Below are positions 10,920-52,982 of a stretch of 64,000 nt of DNA, in pieces. Made by a program: the position numbers and the translations under genes. Source of the stretch: an uncultured Clostridia bacterium (GTDB lineage: Bacteria; Bacillota; Clostridia; TANB77; CAG-508); NCBI GenBank assembly GCA_948735595.1, contig CAPXSA010000002.1:33713-97712 (forward strand), written 5' to 3'. The first letter of the stretch is position 1; every line of letters starts with the position of its first letter. The notes beneath the pieces are model-generated. The model was not told where the DNA came from and ran no database searches. It saw nothing but the letters and a program-made list of their open reading frames with translations.

Positions 10920-10994
10920 TGGCAGGGGTAGAAGGATTCGAACCCTCACAGGCGGTTTTGGAGACCGATGTGCTACCATTAACACTATACCCCT
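10920..10994 (-). tRNA. tRNA-Trp (anticodon CCA)
   Basis: reverse complement AGGGGTATAGTGTTAATGGTAGCACATCGGTCTCCAAAACCG...GGTTCGAATCCTTCTACCCCTGCCA folds as cloverleaf with CCA anticodon; GC-rich against AT-rich background. Confidence 0.85.
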
Positions 10995-11119: not shown

Positions 11120-11480
11120 GGGGATGTATTTTGGCTTCGACAGTATTCCAGAAGTATTAGTAGCGAGTAGTGGATTCTCACTTGGCCACTTAAATCATGT
11201 GAGAAATTAAAATTAAACGCTGATAATAGAGAATTAGCATACGCTGCCTAGTTGCGGCGACGTCTTACTTTAAGTGCCCACGCTTTTAGATAAGGCGTAG
11301 ATATAGTGGGAAACGAAACTGTTTTTAGTTATGGAAACAGTGGGTAACTTTAAATAACTACTTTCTATATAAGCTTGTTTGTTAGGTTATATAGAAGGGA
11401 ATTTTGAAAACAAACTGCACTCGGAGAAGCTGGTATGGAAAGAATATTGGACAGGGGTTCGACTCCCCTCATCTCCACCA
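11120..11480 (+). ncRNA. ssrA: tmRNA (ssrA), tag reading frame ADNRELAYAA*
   Basis: 5' GGGGATGT..GGCTTCGACAG tRNA-like start, 3' GGACAGGGGTTCGACTCCCCTCATCTCCACCA T-arm/acceptor; internal ORF GCT GAT AAT AGA GAA TTA GCA TAC GCT GCC TAG; -10 TATAAT at 11091. Confidence 0.9.
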
Positions 11481-24555: not shown

Positions 24556-24629
<74 letters not shown>

Positions 24630-24689: not shown

Positions 24690-25214
24690 TAATAATTCAT
24701 TTTTAAAATTTTGAGAAATTTTGGAAATATATTTGACAAAAAAAGGAAACTATAGTATAATAAATTTTGTGGTGCATTATTCTAGTCGCATAAATAATAT
24801 GAAGGTGGGGCTAAAAATCCACTAATTGTGTGAAAAGCACTTTATATATTCTGCTTTCTTCGCCCAGATGAGGGTGGGTATATAATTTAAGATTTAAGGA
24901 AAAGTTGTAATGGCATACAATGAAATTCCTTTTGTCGATTGCAAATGAAAATAAAGCACATGTCGTGAGTGATAATATGGGATAGCGTAATCTGCTTTGA
25001 AAATATTATTGCAAAAGCGAATAAGTATTATCTTATATGTGTTAGGGAAAACCTCTAGAGTGTCAATATCACAAGGATTAAGGTACGGACTAAGTGGCAA
25101 TCGAGTCATTAAGCTGGTAACACTTAATTACTTTTCTTAAAGAGAAATCGCCCATGGGTAACCTAAGGTGAAAAGTAGAGAAATTCAACTCGACCTAAGC
25201 CGTAAAATTAATTT
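24690..25214 (+). promoter_or_regulatory. unusually long (~520 nt) non-coding leader upstream of a membrane-protein gene; possible cis-regulatory RNA (unidentified)
   Basis: no ORF with coding signal; -35/-10-like TTGACA...TATAAT around 24727-24760; contains AGGGTGG but no complete T-box or other riboswitch consensus I could recognise. Confidence 0.25.
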
Positions 25215-25788
25215 GTGAGATACCATGATTTTTATAAAAGAAAAACTTTTGAAGAAAGAGTGAAGATTTCATTGAAAGATAAATGGATTATTCAAGTATT
25301 TATTATTTCATTCATTTTATCCGCAATATTTAGTGGATTATCGTCCTTATTATCAGACATTAATGTTATTGCTTTAGTCGTAATTATTCTCATTGTTATT
25401 GGAATTGGTATATTATTTGATATGATTGGTGTTGCAGCGTTAACTGCGGAAGAAGCGCCTTTTCATGCGATGAATTCAAAAAAGATAAAAGAAGCAACAG
25501 CTTGTATCAATTTATTAAAAAATAGCACAAAAGTTTCTAGTGTTTGTAATGATATTGTAGGAGACATTTGTGGTATTGTAAGCCGGAGGGTTAGGCGCAA
25601 CTTTAACAGTGTACTTAACAACAGCATGTCATATGCACGCACTACTGGCTAGTATTTTAGTAGCATCTTTTATTTCAGCATTAACAGTAGGAGGAAAGGC
25701 GTTCTTTAAAACAGTTGCTACAAAAAAATGTGATGAAATAGTATTAGTAGCAGGAAAGGTATTGCAAATATTTACAAAATCGAAATAG
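25215..25788 (+). pseudogene. polytopic membrane protein of unknown family, frameshift near 25590
   Basis: ORF 25215..25652 ends ..DIVGDICGIVSRRVRR..*; +1 frame continues GGLGATLTVYLTT...ALTVGGKAFFKTVATKKCDEIVLVAGKVLQIFTKSK* as a plausible membrane-protein C-terminus. Confidence 0.4.
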
Positions 25789-32447: not shown

Positions 32448-32690
32448 TAGTTGAAATAAGAAAAACAGAAATGAGACAGAGTAAAATCAAGGTTGTGGAA
32501 AGAGAGAATTAGTTACCAGCTGAAAGCTAATTTACAAAAACAGATTTGAAAAACTACCTCATTTGTTCCTAGCAAAAAACTAGGCGTAAAATCTGCGTTA
32601 AAGAAAATAAAGTAAAATTAAGGGATGGAACCGTGTAAATAAGCACTCCTTTTAACTAAGAGATTAGTTAAAAGGAGTGCTTTTTTTGTT
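32448..32690 (+). promoter_or_regulatory. T-box leader (Thr-specific) with terminator, upstream of thrS
   Basis: promoter TTGACG(32413)-17-TATAAT(32436); T-box-like AATTAAGGGATGGAACCGTG at 32616-32635; terminator AGCACTCCTTTT...AAAAGGAGTGCTTTTTTT at 32642-32688; ACC triplet in candidate specifier region. Confidence 0.65.
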
Positions 32691-32762: not shown

Positions 32763-34679
32763 ATGGTAAAAGTAGAATTAAAAGATGGTTCTAAAATAGA
32801 AGTACAAGAAGGTAGTTCTATTTTAGAAGTGGCAAAACAAATTAGTGAAGGTCTAGCTAGAAATGCGATGGCTGGAAAAATCAATGGTGAAGTGAAAGAT
32901 TTAAGAACAGCAATTAACGAAGATTGTAAATTAGAAATTATGACTTTTGATAATGAAGAAGGTAAAAAAGCATTTTGGCATACAACTTCACATATTATGG
33001 CACAAGCTGTAAAGAGGCTTTATGGAGATAATGCCAAACTAACAATAGGACCTTCTATTGATAATGGTTTCTATTATGACTTTGACGTAGAAAAACCATT
33101 TACAGAAGAAGATTTAGCCAAAATTGAAGAAGAAATGAAAAAGATTGTGAAAGAAAATTTAGAACTTACAAGATATACTCTTCCAAGAAGTGAAGCTATC
33201 AAACTAATGGAAGAAAGAAAAGAGCCATATAAAGTTGAATTGATTGAGGAATTACCAGAGGGTGAAGAAATTAGTTTTTATGACCAAGGAGAATTTAAAG
33301 AGTTATGTGCAGGACCACATATTATGAGTACAGGAGGAGTAAAAGCTTTCAAATTATTAAATTCTTCATCAGCTTATTGGAGAGGTGATGAAACAAAACA
33401 AACACTTCAAAGAATTTATGGTATTTCTTTCCCTAAAGCTAGCATGTTAGAAGAATATTTATTTATGTTAGAAGAAGCAAAGAAAAGAGATCATAGGAAA
33501 TTAGGAAAAGAATTAGATTTATTCTTCTTTGATGAAACTGCGCCAGGTATGGCTTATTGGATGCCAAAGGGCTTTACTATGATGAATGTGCTAATTGACT
33601 TATGGAGAAAAGAACATAAAAAAAGAGGATATCAAGAATTTTCTGGTCCACAATTAAATAGTAGCGTACTATGGAAGACTTCAGGTCATTGGGACCATTA
33701 TAAAGAGGATATGTTTGTATTAACAGATGCTGATGGGAACGAACAAGCATTAAAGCCAATGAACTGTCCAAACTCTATCAAAATTTATCAAAGCAAACTA
33801 AGAAGTTACAAAGACTTACCACTTCGCTTTAGTGATATTGATGTTATTCATAGAAATGAAAAATCTGGTCAATTAAACGGACTATTTAGAGTAAGAATGT
33901 TTAGGCAGGATGATTCTCACAATTATGTAATGGAATCTCAAATTAAAGATGAGATTAAAGAAATTTTAGAGATCGCCAAAAAACTATACAACATTTTTGG
34001 ACTAGACTTCATTCTAACTCTATCTACTAGACCAGATGACTACATGGGTGAATTAAGTTTATGGGATAAAGCAGAAGCAGACTTAAAAGATGTGTTAGAT
34101 GAAATTTGTGGAAGGGATAATTATCGTATCAATGAAGGTGATGGAGCATTCTATGGCCCTAAGATTGATATTAAAATGAAGGACTGTTTAGGAAGAGAGT
34201 GGCAAATGGGAACTGTACAAGTAGACTTCCAATTACCATTAAGATTTAATTTAAGCTATATTGACTCTGATGGAGAAAAGAAAACTCCAATTATGATACA
34301 CAGAGCATTATTTGGTTCTTTTGAAAGATTTATTGGTATTTTAACCGAACATTATGCAGGTGCATTTCCAACATGGCTTTCACCAGTACAAGTAAGATTA
34401 CTTCCTATTGCAGATAGCCATAAAGAATATGCAAACAAAGTAGCAGAAGAAATAGATAAAGCCGGAATTCGTGTAGAAGTAGATGAAAGACAAGAAAAAA
34501 TTGGCTACAAAATACGTGAAGCACAACTTCAAAAAATACCATATATGTTAATTTTAGGAGATAAAGAAGTTGAGGGCAATAGCGTTGGTGTTAGATCAAG
34601 AACAGAAGGAGATATTGGACAAATAACAATAGAAGAGTTTATTACTAAGATAAAACAAGAGGTAGAAAACTACAAATAA
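32763..34679 (+). CDS. thrS: threonine--tRNA ligase
   Basis: ORF 32697..34679; ATG 32763 after RBS AGGAGGAAAA; TGS, editing, class II catalytic and anticodon-binding domains across 639 aa. Confidence 0.9.
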   Translation: MVKVELKDGSKIEVQEGSSILEVAKQISEGLARNAMAGKINGEVKDLRTAINEDCKLEIMTFDNEEGKKAFWHTTSHIMAQAVKRLYGDNAKLTIGPSIDNGFYYDFDVEKPFTEEDLAKIEEEMKKIVKENLELTRYTLPRSEAIKLMEERKEPYKVELIEELPEGEEISFYDQGEFKELCAGPHIMSTGGVKAFKLLNSSSAYWRGDETKQTLQRIYGISFPKASMLEEYLFMLEEAKKRDHRKLGKELDLFFFDETAPGMAYWMPKGFTMMNVLIDLWRKEHKKRGYQEFSGPQLNSSVLWKTSGHWDHYKEDMFVLTDADGNEQALKPMNCPNSIKIYQSKLRSYKDLPLRFSDIDVIHRNEKSGQLNGLFRVRMFRQDDSHNYVMESQIKDEIKEILEIAKKLYNIFGLDFILTLSTRPDDYMGELSLWDKAEADLKDVLDEICGRDNYRINEGDGAFYGPKIDIKMKDCLGREWQMGTVQVDFQLPLRFNLSYIDSDGEKKTPIMIHRALFGSFERFIGILTEHYAGAFPTWLSPVQVRLLPIADSHKEYANKVAEEIDKAGIRVEVDERQEKIGYKIREAQLQKIPYMLILGDKEVEGNSVGVRSRTEGDIGQITIEEFITKIKQEVENYK

Positions 34680-34688
34680 AATAAAAAA

Positions 34689-34715
34689 GGAGCCACCAAA
34701 ACGGTAGCTCCTTTT
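34689..34715 (+). terminator. rho-independent terminator after thrS
   Basis: GGAGCCACCaaaacGGTAGCTCCTTTT. Confidence 0.6.
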
Positions 34716-34716
34716 G

Positions 34717-35010
34717 CTTGGATTAGTGGAGCGCAAGCATATAGGGCGTGGCCAGTCTGTCAACAGTTAAAAGAGAGTCGGGACGGTTGAAATCATAGCG
34801 CAACTGCCCGGGGGACTCTTCTTTTAACTTGCCGCCAACTTCCTCTACTTGGTCCATAAATTCCACCAATTGGTGGTCAGGGACAGTGCAGACGTAGAGA
34901 CCTATTGTGGTTTCTTCGTCTTGCGAGGTAGCAGGGCTAACGAAAAACAGCGATACCTTTGTGGAAGTGCCAACCGAAGAATCTTGCTGCTGATCCATAT
35001 TACCACTCCA
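34717..35010. other. GC-rich (~50% GC) ~290-nt island in 28%-GC context: candidate structured ncRNA of unknown identity (alternatively a foreign 91-aa ORF on the minus strand)
   Basis: compositional jump; internal palindromes CCACCAATTGGTGG and GTTAAAAGAGAGTC...GACTCTTCTTTTAAC; minus-strand ORF 34723..34998 uses GC-rich codons atypical for the genome. Confidence 0.3.
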
Positions 35011-35190
35011 ATCAAATAAAATGGCTTGTCTATTTTAGACAAAAGCACTAACAGTATATCACATTATGTTAAGAACGTCAAATTCATAAAAATATGTTGT
35101 AAATCAAAATACTTTTATGATATACTTTCAAAAGAGAAATTCCACTTAAAGTGGAATAGACGATAAATTGGAAAGAGGAAAAACATAGAA

Positions 35191-37521
35191 ATGCCTAAAA
35201 ATACAGAAGAAAATCAAGATAAAATGAAAGAGAAATTAGCTTATTTAGGACTTAATTTAACAAGAATACCTAAAATCTTAAAAGAATTCACACCAATTAG
35301 TTACAGACCAACTAAATCTTATGATGACACAAGCTATAAGGTGTATCAATATATTCCAGTTTGTGATATTCAAATTTTGCTAACGCCAACACACCGATTA
35401 GCAGAGTTAAATCAAAAATATAAATTATCAGCACCCATAGGAACTTATCTAGATACAAAATCAGAGGAAAATATTGAGAGATTTGCAACATTTCTAACAA
35501 TGCTAGGTGGCATGAAAGAGGGCGAAATTGAAGAACTAGAAAAAGAACAAGAAAAATTAAAGCAAATGCTTCCTTATGAAATCAAATATTCTCATAACTA
35601 TATTTGGCAAATTTTTTATTCAGAAGTTTCAAATAAATACTTTATGCTAGTACCAACAAATGAAACGAATAACAATGCATTTTTCTATTTACTAAAAAAG
35701 CAAATAGCATGTAGCAAATCTCGAAAAAAAGAATATATCTTTGCACCAGTAACCCATCAAGATTATTCAGGACGCTACTTAGTACAAAGCCAAATAACAG
35801 ATATTGAAAACTATTTATGGTATTTCACGAAAGAATGGCCTAATATTTATGAAGTATATGAGATGAAAGGCAAAATGACTTTGAAAATAGTAGGAAAGAC
35901 GAAAGTATATGGAGAGGTAAAAAGTGATTATGTCATCACTTTAGAAACAAAAGAGCAAGCAATAGAGTGGTACAAATTAATGAAAGCACTTTTCATTTTA
36001 GCAACAGGTTTGCCTAATGATTATCAGTTTCAAACAGCTATTTCAGAGCAAGGAGAATTAGAGTTCTTACATAAAGAAAAAATAAAAATGGAATATACCA
36101 CTTTGCCACTTTTCATCAGAGAACAAGTAGAACTAAAGAAGCTTTTAGTAGTAGAAGAAGATCAAAGATTAGTAGAGGAACAAGAAAAACTACAAGACTT
36201 AAAAAAGATTACAGAAAGTCAAACAGAAGAATATTTAACAAAACAACGTCAAATTGCTACTTTTTTAGAATGTAAAAAGACTTTTTTTGGAAAGATTAAA
36301 TACTATTTTGGAACTCGCAAAAAGCATCAAGGCAGTGTGGAAAGCCATCAGAATAAAATAGAATTAGAAGAAAAGAAAAAGGAAGAGATTAAGCAAGAAA
36401 TAAAAGAAGAGGCAAAAGAAAACTATACTATTGAAGATTTAATTGAAATTTGTACAAAACTAGATGGCAGAAAGAAAATGGTTAAAAATCTGCAAATGGA
36501 TAAAAAAGCATTAGAATTAAAGAGAATTAACTTAGAACGAAAAATTAAAAATGCAAATATCTACTTAAATGAGATTGAACTACATAAAAAAAGTATTTTT
36601 GAATTTTGGAAGTTTACGAATAAAGATGAATTACCAAGCTTAAATGAAGGTGAAGAAGAAGACGGAAGTGAAAAAGAGAAAATAGGAAAGAGCTTCGTAT
36701 TTGAAGAAGATATAGAAAGCTTAGGAAAGCAAATGGATGAATTACAAAGAAGGAAACTTTCTAAAAATGAAACTGACGCTATTTTTGCTGTACAACATGC
36801 AATAGATTCTTGTCAAATCTTGATGAAGACAAATAGCAAGGATTTAAAACCAAAAGAATTAGCTAAAATACAAGCGGGATTAGATAATTTAAAAACAGAA
36901 TATGAGGGGAATATAGAAACAATTGAATTGAAAGATTTTGATGTTTTTGGTGGAATGATAGAAGACAGCACGAAGGTAAAGCTATTACATAATGAAAAAC
37001 ATCGTGAGATAGAAAAAGATAAGTACAAAGTGCTAAACATTACGCCAAATACAGAACTAAAAGTGTTTATTGACAATTTAAGAAATAGCTTAAAATTAGT
37101 AAAAGAAGCATTCTGCAAGATTACGACTCCATTTGAAATGCCAGTCTATATGGCAAATACAAAGCAAGTGGAAATGGATAATTTAAATATTGCAAACTTA
37201 AATGCAACTGAAGAACTATATCAGACAGTGGCAAAAATGCAAGAAGGAGAAAAGCTATATTTCTATACCATACAACTACCAAAAGGTGCTCCATTAATTT
37301 ATGATACGAACATTACACAATATGATAACTTTAATCAAACTTTGCCAGTTGGCATGGATGTAACAACAAAAGTGTTGATTAATTTGGAAGACTATAAACT
37401 AGTCAATAAACATGAAAAGCAAATTCGTATTAACTATCAAGAAGATGAATATGTAAATCGAGTAGTTGAAGTACAAGTAGTAGATTATGAAGCTAAGCTA
37501 TTGCAAAAAGAAAACACGTAG
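35191..37521 (+). CDS. large hypothetical protein, coiled-coil rich (776 aa)
   Basis: long ORF, charged K/E-rich coiled-coil central region, no domain recognised. Confidence 0.5.
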   Translation: MPKNTEENQDKMKEKLAYLGLNLTRIPKILKEFTPISYRPTKSYDDTSYKVYQYIPVCDIQILLTPTHRLAELNQKYKLSAPIGTYLDTKSEENIERFATFLTMLGGMKEGEIEELEKEQEKLKQMLPYEIKYSHNYIWQIFYSEVSNKYFMLVPTNETNNNAFFYLLKKQIACSKSRKKEYIFAPVTHQDYSGRYLVQSQITDIENYLWYFTKEWPNIYEVYEMKGKMTLKIVGKTKVYGEVKSDYVITLETKEQAIEWYKLMKALFILATGLPNDYQFQTAISEQGELEFLHKEKIKMEYTTLPLFIREQVELKKLLVVEEDQRLVEEQEKLQDLKKITESQTEEYLTKQRQIATFLECKKTFFGKIKYYFGTRKKHQGSVESHQNKIELEEKKKEEIKQEIKEEAKENYTIEDLIEICTKLDGRKKMVKNLQMDKKALELKRINLERKIKNANIYLNEIELHKKSIFEFWKFTNKDELPSLNEGEEEDGSEKEKIGKSFVFEEDIESLGKQMDELQRRKLSKNETDAIFAVQHAIDSCQILMKTNSKDLKPKELAKIQAGLDNLKTEYEGNIETIELKDFDVFGGMIEDSTKVKLLHNEKHREIEKDKYKVLNITPNTELKVFIDNLRNSLKLVKEAFCKITTPFEMPVYMANTKQVEMDNLNIANLNATEELYQTVAKMQEGEKLYFYTIQLPKGAPLIYDTNITQYDNFNQTLPVGMDVTTKVLINLEDYKLVNKHEKQIRINYQEDEYVNRVVEVQVVDYEAKLLQKENT

Positions 37522-40664: not shown

Positions 40665-40747
40665 GTCGATGTGGCGAAATTGGTATACGCACAGGTCTCA
40701 AAAACCTGCGGGAAACCATGTGGGTTCGATTCCCACCATCGACACCA
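40665..40747 (+). tRNA. tRNA-Leu (anticodon CAA), element-borne replacement copy
   Basis: GTCGATGTGGCGAAATTGGTATACGCACAGGTCTCAAAAACCTGCGGGAAACCATGTGGGTTCGATTCCCACCATCGACACCA; long variable arm; acceptor and anticodon stems self-consistent but differ from the disrupted chromosomal gene. Confidence 0.85.
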
Positions 40748-40751
40748 TAAC

Positions 40752-52353: not shown

Positions 52354-52878
52354 TTAAAGACCTAAATCTTTAGCTTGTGCTTCTGTGACAATGCGTACAC
52401 CCTGTTTAATAAGGATATCTTTCAAAAGTTCCACAATACCTTCCAGTTGCGCAATTTTTCTCTGTTTGCGAGAGAGTTTTTCCATTTCATGCATAGCATT
52501 CCATGTCAACCACTCTTGAGCATCGTAGAGATAACTTTCACTAGTTCCGTGAAACTCGTCTTGAAGCTTAATGCGATTACCATTAGCATCGCTCAGAATG
52601 TAATATCCGTCTTTTCCTTCCTTTCTTTCCACAATAGTGAAAATGGAAGGACAGGGATACTTGGAAAGAGGGTACTTAGTAGTGTCAGGGGTTACACCCC
52701 AATTCACCCGCTGTCCGAAGATAACTGTCTGTCCCACTTTGCCTTTGCCATAGATTGCATTGACTTCAATCTTCTTGCCGTTCTGCCAAAACTCTAGCAT
52801 GGTGATTCCTACCCTTCTTTTACCCGTGAGATTGGATTTGCCCGTGAGGACTTCCACCGAGTAATAATGCTCCTTCAA
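52354..52878 (-). CDS. hypothetical protein in a GC-elevated (~42% GC) patch just outside attR
   Basis: 174-aa ORF with protein-like composition; local GC clearly above flanks; G7 homopolymer at 52273-52279 lies just downstream. Confidence 0.4.
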   Translation of the reverse strand: MKEHYYSVEVLTGKSNLTGKRRVGITMLEFWQNGKKIEVNAIYGKGKVGQTVIFGQRVNWGVTPDTTKYPLSKYPCPSIFTIVERKEGKDGYYILSDANGNRIKLQDEFHGTSESYLYDAQEWLTWNAMHEMEKLSRKQRKIAQLEGIVELLKDILIKQGVRIVTEAQAKDLGL

Positions 52879-52982
52879 ATGTCACAAAGCTTTGAAACAG
52901 AAAGTAATACCGTTTCAATTTTTAATACATTTAAAGAATATATTTATAATATCATATTTATGTAAAATTGTCAAAATTTATT

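Follow-up and report, generated by a model that had tools for sequence, protein, structure and literature searches.

In the AT-rich genomes of low-GC Firmicutes, GC-rich islands with a promoter and a terminator of their own are familiar as the genes of structured non-coding RNAs (ncRNAs) such as RNase P, SRP, 6S, tmRNA and OLE. Two other kinds of described locus are relevant here: the dual-function RNAs, for example B. subtilis SR1/SR1P and S. aureus RNAIII/hld, which are short, stand-alone, structured transcripts that also encode a small protein; and the lineage-specific small open reading frames (ORFs) annotated as "hypothetical protein" in Firmicutes, which have cytoplasmic products of about 90 amino acids (aa), form monocistronic units bounded by a promoter and a terminator of their own, belong to no assigned family and occur in a narrow range of taxa. 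The locus described below lies in a 64-kb stretch of DNA from an uncultured Clostridia bacterium (the window, by which we mean the whole stretch), where positions 34717-35010 form an island of about 50% GC, the whole window having 29.6%. The original prediction, made from the letters of the window before any database search, preferred to see an unclassified structured ncRNA in this island, which does resemble such RNAs in its composition and in its predicted promoter and terminator. Unlike them, however, the island matches no covariance model and evolves as codons, and the tmRNA and OLE RNA of this genome are found elsewhere in the window. The best explanation, to which we give a probability of about 0.8, is that the island is a monocistronic minus-strand gene for an orphan protein of 91 residues, dispensable and fast-diversifying, with a structured mRNA. 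It shares all the listed traits of the lineage-specific small ORFs and differs from them by a GC content at third codon positions (GC3) three times that of the genome, by an over-folded mRNA and by the very unlike versions that occupy its fixed chromosomal slot.

The compositional step is abrupt, as had been noted: in 200-nt segments the GC fraction is 0.505 at 34700-34899 and 0.495 at 34800-34999, against 0.27-0.34 on either side, and the most GC-rich 250-nt segment of the entire 64 kb is 34726-34975 (0.508; the runner-up reaches 0.46). The repeats that had been singled out in the island are present too, namely the perfect palindrome CCACCAATTGGTGG (34863-34876) and both arms of a long-range helix, GTTAAAAGAGAGTC at 34766-34779 and GACTCTTCTTTTAAC at 34814-34828. 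Taken alone, the palindrome is not beyond chance: the window has five perfect palindromes of 14 nt, approximately the number expected, and CCACCAATTGGTGG is the sole GC-rich one among them.

The 91-aa minus-strand ORF (34723-34998), which had been offered as the alternative to an RNA gene, exists and evolves as a coding sequence. A first protein search returned four homologues of 85-95% identity, all of them 91 aa long and all syntenic. Among these close homologues the variable sites at codon positions 1, 2 and 3 number 12, 15 and 23, and the 5' half of the ORF is almost invariant as DNA; the ratio of nonsynonymous to synonymous differences per site (pN/pS) in the window's subclade is 0.2-0.66 in the frame of the ORF, whereas in the two alternative frames it runs from 0.6 to 3.4 and for the most part is close to 1 or higher. 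On the close homologues alone, the coding evidence is ambiguous. We have therefore used the 776-aa protein encoded by the neighbouring gene as a handle, which gave 80 species-level loci (loci are cited here by L numbers) in metagenome-assembled genomes of uncultured gut Clostridia with 25-33% GC, relatives of Clostridium sp. CAG:508 and CAG:567. By blastn the full island is found in L012 alone, L013 and L017 sharing just the 68-nt leader region. A jackhmmer search from the window ORF, on the other hand, recovered ORFs of 87-93 aa with matching position and orientation in L012, L013, L017, L019 and L022, with E-values from 1e-30 to 1e-47 (1e-30 to 1e-34 for the ORFs of L013, L017, L019 and L022), and the diverged homologues in the slot between thrS and the 776-aa gene are 25-57% identical.

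These diverged versions carry the argument. Between them pS is 0.6-0.9, that is, saturated, with pN at 0.25-0.5 and dN/dS at about 0.15-0.35 where it could be computed. Identity at codon positions 1, 2 and 3 is, for example, 0.71/0.73/0.47 in one comparison and 0.68/0.74/0.41 in another; the indels (2, 7 and 14 residues) are all in frame, and the Shine-Dalgarno (SD) sequence and the ATG are retained. Judged by this pattern of substitution, the minus-strand ORF is a real gene for a protein. When 5.8e9 proteins were searched with a profile, 17 clusters of 83-108 aa came together, none of them named and none with a Pfam domain. An exhaustive hidden Markov model search of 1.84e9 representatives gave about 12 real clusters, of which few were additional, its long matches being tandem-repeat junk.

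The features of the gene and its borders, in the order of transcription and followed by the two neighbouring genes, are these:

35053-35081, minus strand: predicted sigma-70-type promoter, TTGACG, 17 nt, TG-n-TATACT (extended -10), 10 of 12 consensus matches
34999-35046, minus strand: predicted 5' leader of 48 nt, its start (about 35046) placed from the -10 box
35026-35042, minus strand: 5'-proximal stem-loop TTGTCTA-AAA-TAGACAA, about 5 nt past the predicted transcription start, a candidate mRNA stabiliser
35006-35009, minus strand: SD sequence GGAG, read from the sequence, 7 nt upstream of the ATG (34998)
34723-34998, minus strand: coding sequence of the 91-aa protein, stop included, GC 0.50, GC3 0.54
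34863-34876, both strands: palindrome CCACCAATTGGTGG inside the coding sequence, covering the codons His-Gln-Leu-Val of helix 1, a predicted local mRNA hairpin
34761-34834, minus strand: long internal mRNA hairpin, predicted, which takes in both helix arms (14 and 15 nt) and lies where strands 3 and 4 are encoded
34685-34715, both strands: bidirectional intrinsic terminator, serving thrS (plus) and the small gene (minus), 14 pairs and a T-run
32763-34679, plus strand: thrS (threonyl-tRNA synthetase), convergent neighbour
35191-37521, plus strand: gene of the 776-aa orphan protein, divergent neighbour, with a promoter-like site at 35097-35126

With a promoter and a terminator bracketing the ORF, and with a leader and a ribosome-binding site (RBS) that can be read between them, the island is by its sequence signals a transcription unit of its own. 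The promoter accompanies every version of the gene at the related loci, and across all versions the leader measures 41-50 nt. A 5' hairpin occupies the same place with other stems (TTGGTCT/AGACTAA in L019, GTCCA/TGGAC in L093, TAGCC/GGCTA in L022, AGATTTC/GAAATCT in L031 and TTAGTC/GACTAA in L041); in individual folds it is seen in the majority of versions whose promoter can be recognised, but it is weak in L023, and for L051 no such hairpin is predicted. GGAGTG precedes all the recognised members, while other sites of the GGAG or AGGTG type stand before the slot ORFs whose homology is uncertain, and in every version the GGAG or GGAGTG stands 6-9 nt before the ATG. At the other end, the thrS terminator that had been placed at the border of the island is indeed there and serves both directions; its stem shows compensatory changes between loci (alignment columns 344/360). 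Inside the coding sequence, CCACCAATTGGTGG is unchanged across the six sequences of the window's subclade, and the long internal hairpin is kept in the same six with a few one-sided and two double changes; by eye, no such hairpin can be made out in L092, the version with 57% identity.

The encoded protein has a mass of 10.2 kDa and a pI of 4.3, with neither a signal peptide nor a membrane segment; its acidity is not a family-wide trait. Its predicted tryptic peptides include VSLFFVSPATSQDEETTIGLYVCTVPDHQLVEFMDQVEEVGGK and LATPYMLALH. Neither the window protein nor any of the 18 family members gave a match in Pfam, NCBIfam, PADLOC, PHROGs or the sequences of the PDB, and for the 18 members the anti-phage and phage families of PADLOC and PHROGs gave none at E <= 0.09. 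By these searches, the proteins are a new, unannotated small-protein family. AlphaFold2, given an alignment of 18 sequences, returned a confident model (mean predicted local distance difference test score 81.9, predicted TM-score 0.68) with the elements β 12-21, β 31-40, α 41-53, β 57-62, β 65-70 and α 75-90, in which the protein would consist of two β-hairpins with a helix after each (β-β-α-β-β-α). Foldseek found nothing similar in the PDB or BFVD at E <= 1e-3. Its best matches were the N-terminal domain of BofC (7xt1; E 0.02, TM-score 0.42) and the B1 domain of protein L (E 0.04-0.1). The model has in common with these, and with the B1 domain of protein G (β-β-α-β-β), a four-stranded sheet of two hairpins and a crossing helix; it differs in its additional C-terminal helix, there is no sequence similarity and the match is below significance. 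BofC is moreover a secreted protein, whereas the window protein has no signal peptide.

The suggestion that this ORF carries motifs like those of ABM monooxygenases has not survived. The ABM domain (PF03992) is also about 90-100 aa long and of mixed α/β composition, and it has a superficially similar "PG.L.Y.F" stretch, but its ferredoxin-like order of elements is β-α-β-β-α-β and not the β-β-α-β-β-α predicted here. Searched against Pfam, the window protein does not hit ABM at E <= 10, nor does any of the 18 members at E <= 1, and there is no ABM structure among the top 50 Foldseek matches in the PDB. An identity as an ABM monooxygenase is thus rejected both on sequence and on fold.

Wherever the contig reaches far enough, all the members with a readable context (L001-L013, L017, L019, L022, L092-L094, L097 and L098) sit between the 3' end of thrS and the 776-aa gene, and all of them share one promoter-leader-RBS module. 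There are local variations. In L094-L096, the small gene and the 776-aa gene no longer abut, being separated by inserted genes for an 80-aa XRE-type helix-turn-helix (HTH) protein, which lies immediately upstream of the small gene in the same orientation, and for a 534-aa Big_2-domain protein (the variant covers L094:1822-3875 and occurs also in L095 and L096); in L093 a DUF6273 gene lies beyond the small gene, at the position that thrS has in the window. In L014-L016 the small ORF is gone, and what is left runs from a promoter remnant through "CTAATCCAAGC" (the stop-codon region) to the terminator, the gap that remains being 195-197 nt (L014:3806-4001, L015, L016). An RBS-preceded small ORF is present in the slot at 11 of 74 species-level loci. 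By this comparison of loci the small gene is dispensable: in most related species it has either been cleanly deleted or has no recognisable member in its place. For the slot ORFs of L023, L031, L041 and L051, homology to the family is not demonstrable; hhalign of the family profile against those of L051, L041 and L031 gave a plausible register with E-values of 0.05-0.3, scores that are not significant. In still other genomes the same slot contains genes with a RelA_SpoT domain (L066:2756-3667 and L075:2990-3853, both on the plus strand, and a partial one in L067). These encode proteins of 287-303 aa, have a GC fraction of up to 0.58 over 150 nt and give a weak match to PDC-S33 of PADLOC; from its sequence, the protein looks like a small alarmone synthetase. 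The slot is thus a hot spot for accessory genes, these ones being GC-rich too. As far as the searches reach, the small-protein family itself is confined to this one locus in one clade of uncultured low-GC gut Clostridia, which we take to be the CAG-508/TANB77-type Clostridia of the GTDB.

Why should such a gene be so rich in G and C? Its GC3 of 0.54 compares with a mean of 0.178 (standard deviation 0.035, maximum 0.233) for 41 long ORFs of the window, so that the foreign codon usage ascribed to it is confirmed (0.54 against 0.18 for the host), and the 50% GC stems mainly from the synonymous sites. GC3 is raised in every member of the family, at 0.31-0.54 against 0.08-0.23 for the host neighbours. 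The messages also tend to be more structured than their proteins and codons require. When the minimum free energy of folding is expressed as a z-score against synonymous-codon permutations with unchanged protein, codon usage and GC content, the window's subclade gives -4.0 (window) and -3.2, -2.4 (L003/L005), the other family versions give -4.3, -1.8, -1.7, -1.5, -1.6, +0.3 and -2.0, and the slot ORFs of uncertain homology lie between -1.1 and -1.9. The mean for 32 control coding segments of the window is -0.22 (standard deviation 1.08), and the family differs from these controls, which are AT-rich host genes and not GC-matched, with a Mann-Whitney p of 0.0015. Finally, the polarised third-position singletons of the subclade comprise 8 changes from G or C to A or T and 6 in the opposite direction, where mutation bias predicts about 5:1 (p = 0.016). 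Against this AT-ward bias of about 5:1, a GC3 that is raised in all versions would be hard to maintain without selection or repeated import.

In the mechanism that we propose, transcription from the strong sigma-70-type promoter at 35081-35053 would yield an mRNA of about 360 nt comprising, in this order, the 5'-proximal stem-loop, the GGAG RBS, the ORF of the acidic and presumably cytoplasmic 91-residue protein, and the terminator held in common with thrS. G and C at the silent sites would be kept by selection, the outcome being a compact, nuclease-resistant and long-lived message; for this part of the proposal we see roughly even odds. A 5' hairpin, a strong SD sequence, a structured body and a strong terminator would together make up the architecture of long-lived Firmicute mRNAs. 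That Firmicute mRNAs such as aprE are stabilised by 5' stem-loops together with ribosome binding is established (works cited in PMC3997798). The small gene would resemble the long-lived mRNAs listed there, with the aprE leader stem-loop and ermC as examples, in having a predicted stem-loop within a few nucleotides of its predicted 5' end and a strong SD sequence. It is unlike them in that its coding body is GC-enriched and over-folded, a trait not described for those mRNAs. As to the protein, its presence/absence polymorphism, its unlike versions in close relatives and its position in a slot for accessory genes lead us to suggest, speculatively and with considerable doubt, a non-essential binding or modulator protein engaged in a co-evolving, perhaps antagonistic, interaction.

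Several points weigh against this account of the locus. The controls for the folding z-scores are the AT-rich host genes just mentioned, version L093 is not over-folded, the structures differ from one version to another and covariation in the subclade is negligible. The substitution-polarity test rests on 14 sites, and the transcription start on the -10 box alone. The low pS between the window and L012 (see below) fits a recent transfer of the version as well as it fits a constraint on silent sites, and the other GC-rich accessory genes of the slot (the RelA_SpoT genes of L066 and L075) favour a foreign origin of the GC. The family, moreover, is small and without functional annotation in the databases searched, and the role of the protein is pure inference.

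The main rival explanation would be that the GC richness is simply the un-ameliorated trace of a recent import, perhaps a repeated one, from a GC-richer donor, the slot past thrS being an insertion hot spot. With a GC3 more than 10 standard deviations above that of the host genes, a patchy distribution and other accessory genes in the same slot (RelA_SpoT in L066, L075 and L067, HTH and Big_2 in L094-L096), the idea has something to recommend it, and the history of the versions adds to it. In the 776-aa gene, the window, L012 and L013 are mutually equidistant (pS 0.45-0.47). In the small gene, the window and L012 are separated by a pS of 0.14 and a pN of 0.07, where their flanks have a pS of 0.39-0.47, and the window-type version thus appears younger than its flanks; between either of the two and L013, pS is 0.70-0.73 and pN 0.41-0.42, a pN eightfold higher than in the flank. 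This incongruence with the flanks implies, as far as the three loci can tell, that versions have been exchanged or sorted among lineages within the clade: either old and deep versions were so redistributed, or the window-type version spread recently, or both. The horizontal acquisition that the original prediction had contemplated is thereby upheld as a movement of versions within the clade, but not as a simple transfer, considering that the family has a single locus in a single clade and is not seen on phages or plasmids. The about 12-17 family clusters among billions of proteins all lie, where the context can be read, in this slot of this low-GC clade. No donor copy was found: blastn against the phage and plasmid collections gave no hit, nor did PHROGs and BFVD. 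There is no integrase among the neighbours and no repeat at the borders of the island. A host-type promoter, leader and RBS are common to all versions, and the raised GC3 extends even to the deeply diverged ones. On balance we consider a recent import unlikely. A diversity-generating retroelement target, or an internal repeat, was also considered as a source of the unlike versions and rejected; there is no second copy of the island in the 64 kb and no reverse-transcriptase gene among the neighbours.

A bolder extension of our preferred reading, that of a dispensable small-protein gene, would have the GC-rich, over-folded mRNA as itself the object of selection, either as a dual-function RNA or as a nuclease-resistant message useful, for instance, in dormant or slow-growing cells. 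It would be kept up against the AT-ward bias at a hypervariable, clade-confined locus whose versions are under balancing or antagonistic selection. We hold this whole to be unlikely. The strict form of its first alternative, an RNA with a regulatory or structural role in addition to its coding for a small protein, its silent sites being constrained and GC-rich for that reason, seems to us improbable. It would agree with the excess of mRNA structure in nearly all versions, with the depressed synonymous divergence in the 5' half, with the excess of changes towards G and C at third positions and with the predicted stand-alone architecture of the transcript, in which the locus is indeed like SR1/SR1P and RNAIII/hld. 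Unlike those examples, however, the gene has no RNA element that recurs across versions and no known RNA target, and its ORF fills nearly the whole transcript. In the coding part no block of structure or sequence is common to the versions, and a specific RNA function would therefore need to have been re-invented in each of them. A generic selection for stability accounts for the same data.

The ncRNA reading, in which an unclassified structured RNA of about 360 nt would be made from the minus strand and the ORF would be fortuitous, now appears highly improbable. Its attractions are real enough: a GC content of about 50% in a genome of 30% is typical of structured RNAs, there is a promoter and a terminator, the region folds better than its dinucleotide shuffles (z = -2.3 for the plus strand and -2.5 for the minus strand), the first 150 nt of the ORF are almost invariant as DNA in the subclade (pS 0.06, the flanks having about 0.4), and a few compensatory changes fall within the long hairpin. 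The RNA searches, however, do not bear it out. Rfam 15, run over 34400-35400 on both strands at E <= 10, has no match on the island itself, in keeping with the original failure to match it to RNase P, SRP, 6S or a common riboswitch consensus; its five weak hits are all centred on the terminator hairpin (34655-34723), and the weakest of them, MicX, reaches as far as 34825 and scores 13 bits where the gathering score is 75. That the search works on this genome is clear from the Rfam gathering scan of the whole window, which finds OLE, tmRNA and three tRNAs, all away from the island. On the six alignable sequences of the subclade, the diverged homologues being unalignable as DNA, covariation is near nil: the RNAalifold covariation term amounts to -0.27 of -104 kcal/mol, and double changes affect 4 of 116 pairs, one of the four being in the terminator. 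The versions, in contrast, evolve in a coding manner, with homology detectable at the protein level alone, ORFs held open through in-frame indels, saturated synonymous sites, a strong three-base periodicity of conservation, a conserved SD sequence and ATG and a confident AlphaFold model, and the helices first seen in the window are absent from the 57%-identical version. It is this codon-position pattern, set against so small a covariation term, that strongly disfavours an RNA gene. As for a contaminant or an assembly chimera, the abrupt change of composition speaks for it and nothing else does, and it can be dismissed because at least 20 metagenome contigs, independently assembled from independent samples and with identical neighbours, encode exactly this protein, with close variants in the Logan, ENA and JGI collections and one in a GenBank metagenome-assembled genome.

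A GC-rich island in an AT-rich Firmicute genome, then, need not be an RNA gene, and codon periodicity among syntenic but diverged versions offers a worked way to separate coding islands from RNA islands. The analysis also establishes a family of unannotated small proteins from an uncultured gut clade of growing interest to microbiome studies, a family with three unusual traits: a GC3 three times the genomic one, over-folded mRNAs and unlike versions in close relatives that are incongruent with their flanks. Should silent-site selection for mRNA structure prove true, the locus would be a clean natural case of synonymous-site selection overriding mutational bias; should it not be confirmed, there would still be a small hot spot past thrS where accessory genes come and go.

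With respect to the neighbours of the island, the 776-aa protein (35191-37521, plus strand) is an orphan as well, with no match in Pfam, NCBIfam or the PDB. Its gene is nonetheless conserved in its place past thrS, with 42-90% identity, in no fewer than 80 of the clade's species-level genomes, and is followed by DUF3006 and ComEC-like MBL-fold genes. The possibility that it is a polymorphic toxin with the small gene as its partner was rejected, its divergence being uniform along its length and the small gene lying upstream and divergent. On the other side, the thrS leader (32459-32653, plus strand) scores 47.1 bits with the T-box model (E = 2e-9) against a gathering score of 93, too low for a default Rfam scan to report; the leader is probably a T-box riboswitch that has diverged.

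Further away, the window contains two large RNAs of known families. The OLE RNA at 24753-25242 (plus strand; 238.7 bits, the gathering score being 50), which follows directly on a tRNA-Gly (24556-24629), is a large structured ncRNA in a small, low-GC genome of gut Clostridia. The tmRNA at 11120-11480 (plus strand), with the tag peptide ADNRELAYAA, adjoins a minus-strand tRNA-Trp (10920-10994); as this is the real tmRNA, that identity was rejected for the island. Beyond the 776-aa gene, a tRNA-Leu (40665-40747) is followed at once by a minus-strand ORF (40752-41162) that by eye resembles the C-terminus of a tyrosine recombinase, and by a small ORF with an excisionase-like HTH (42104-42310, again by eye from the translation), which suggests a candidate integrated mobile element over 40665-42310, starting at the tRNA-Leu. 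The second most GC-rich segment of the window, 52651-52900 (0.46), falls in a minus-strand ORF of 174 aa (52354-52878) with no assigned function, possibly a part of the same mobile region.

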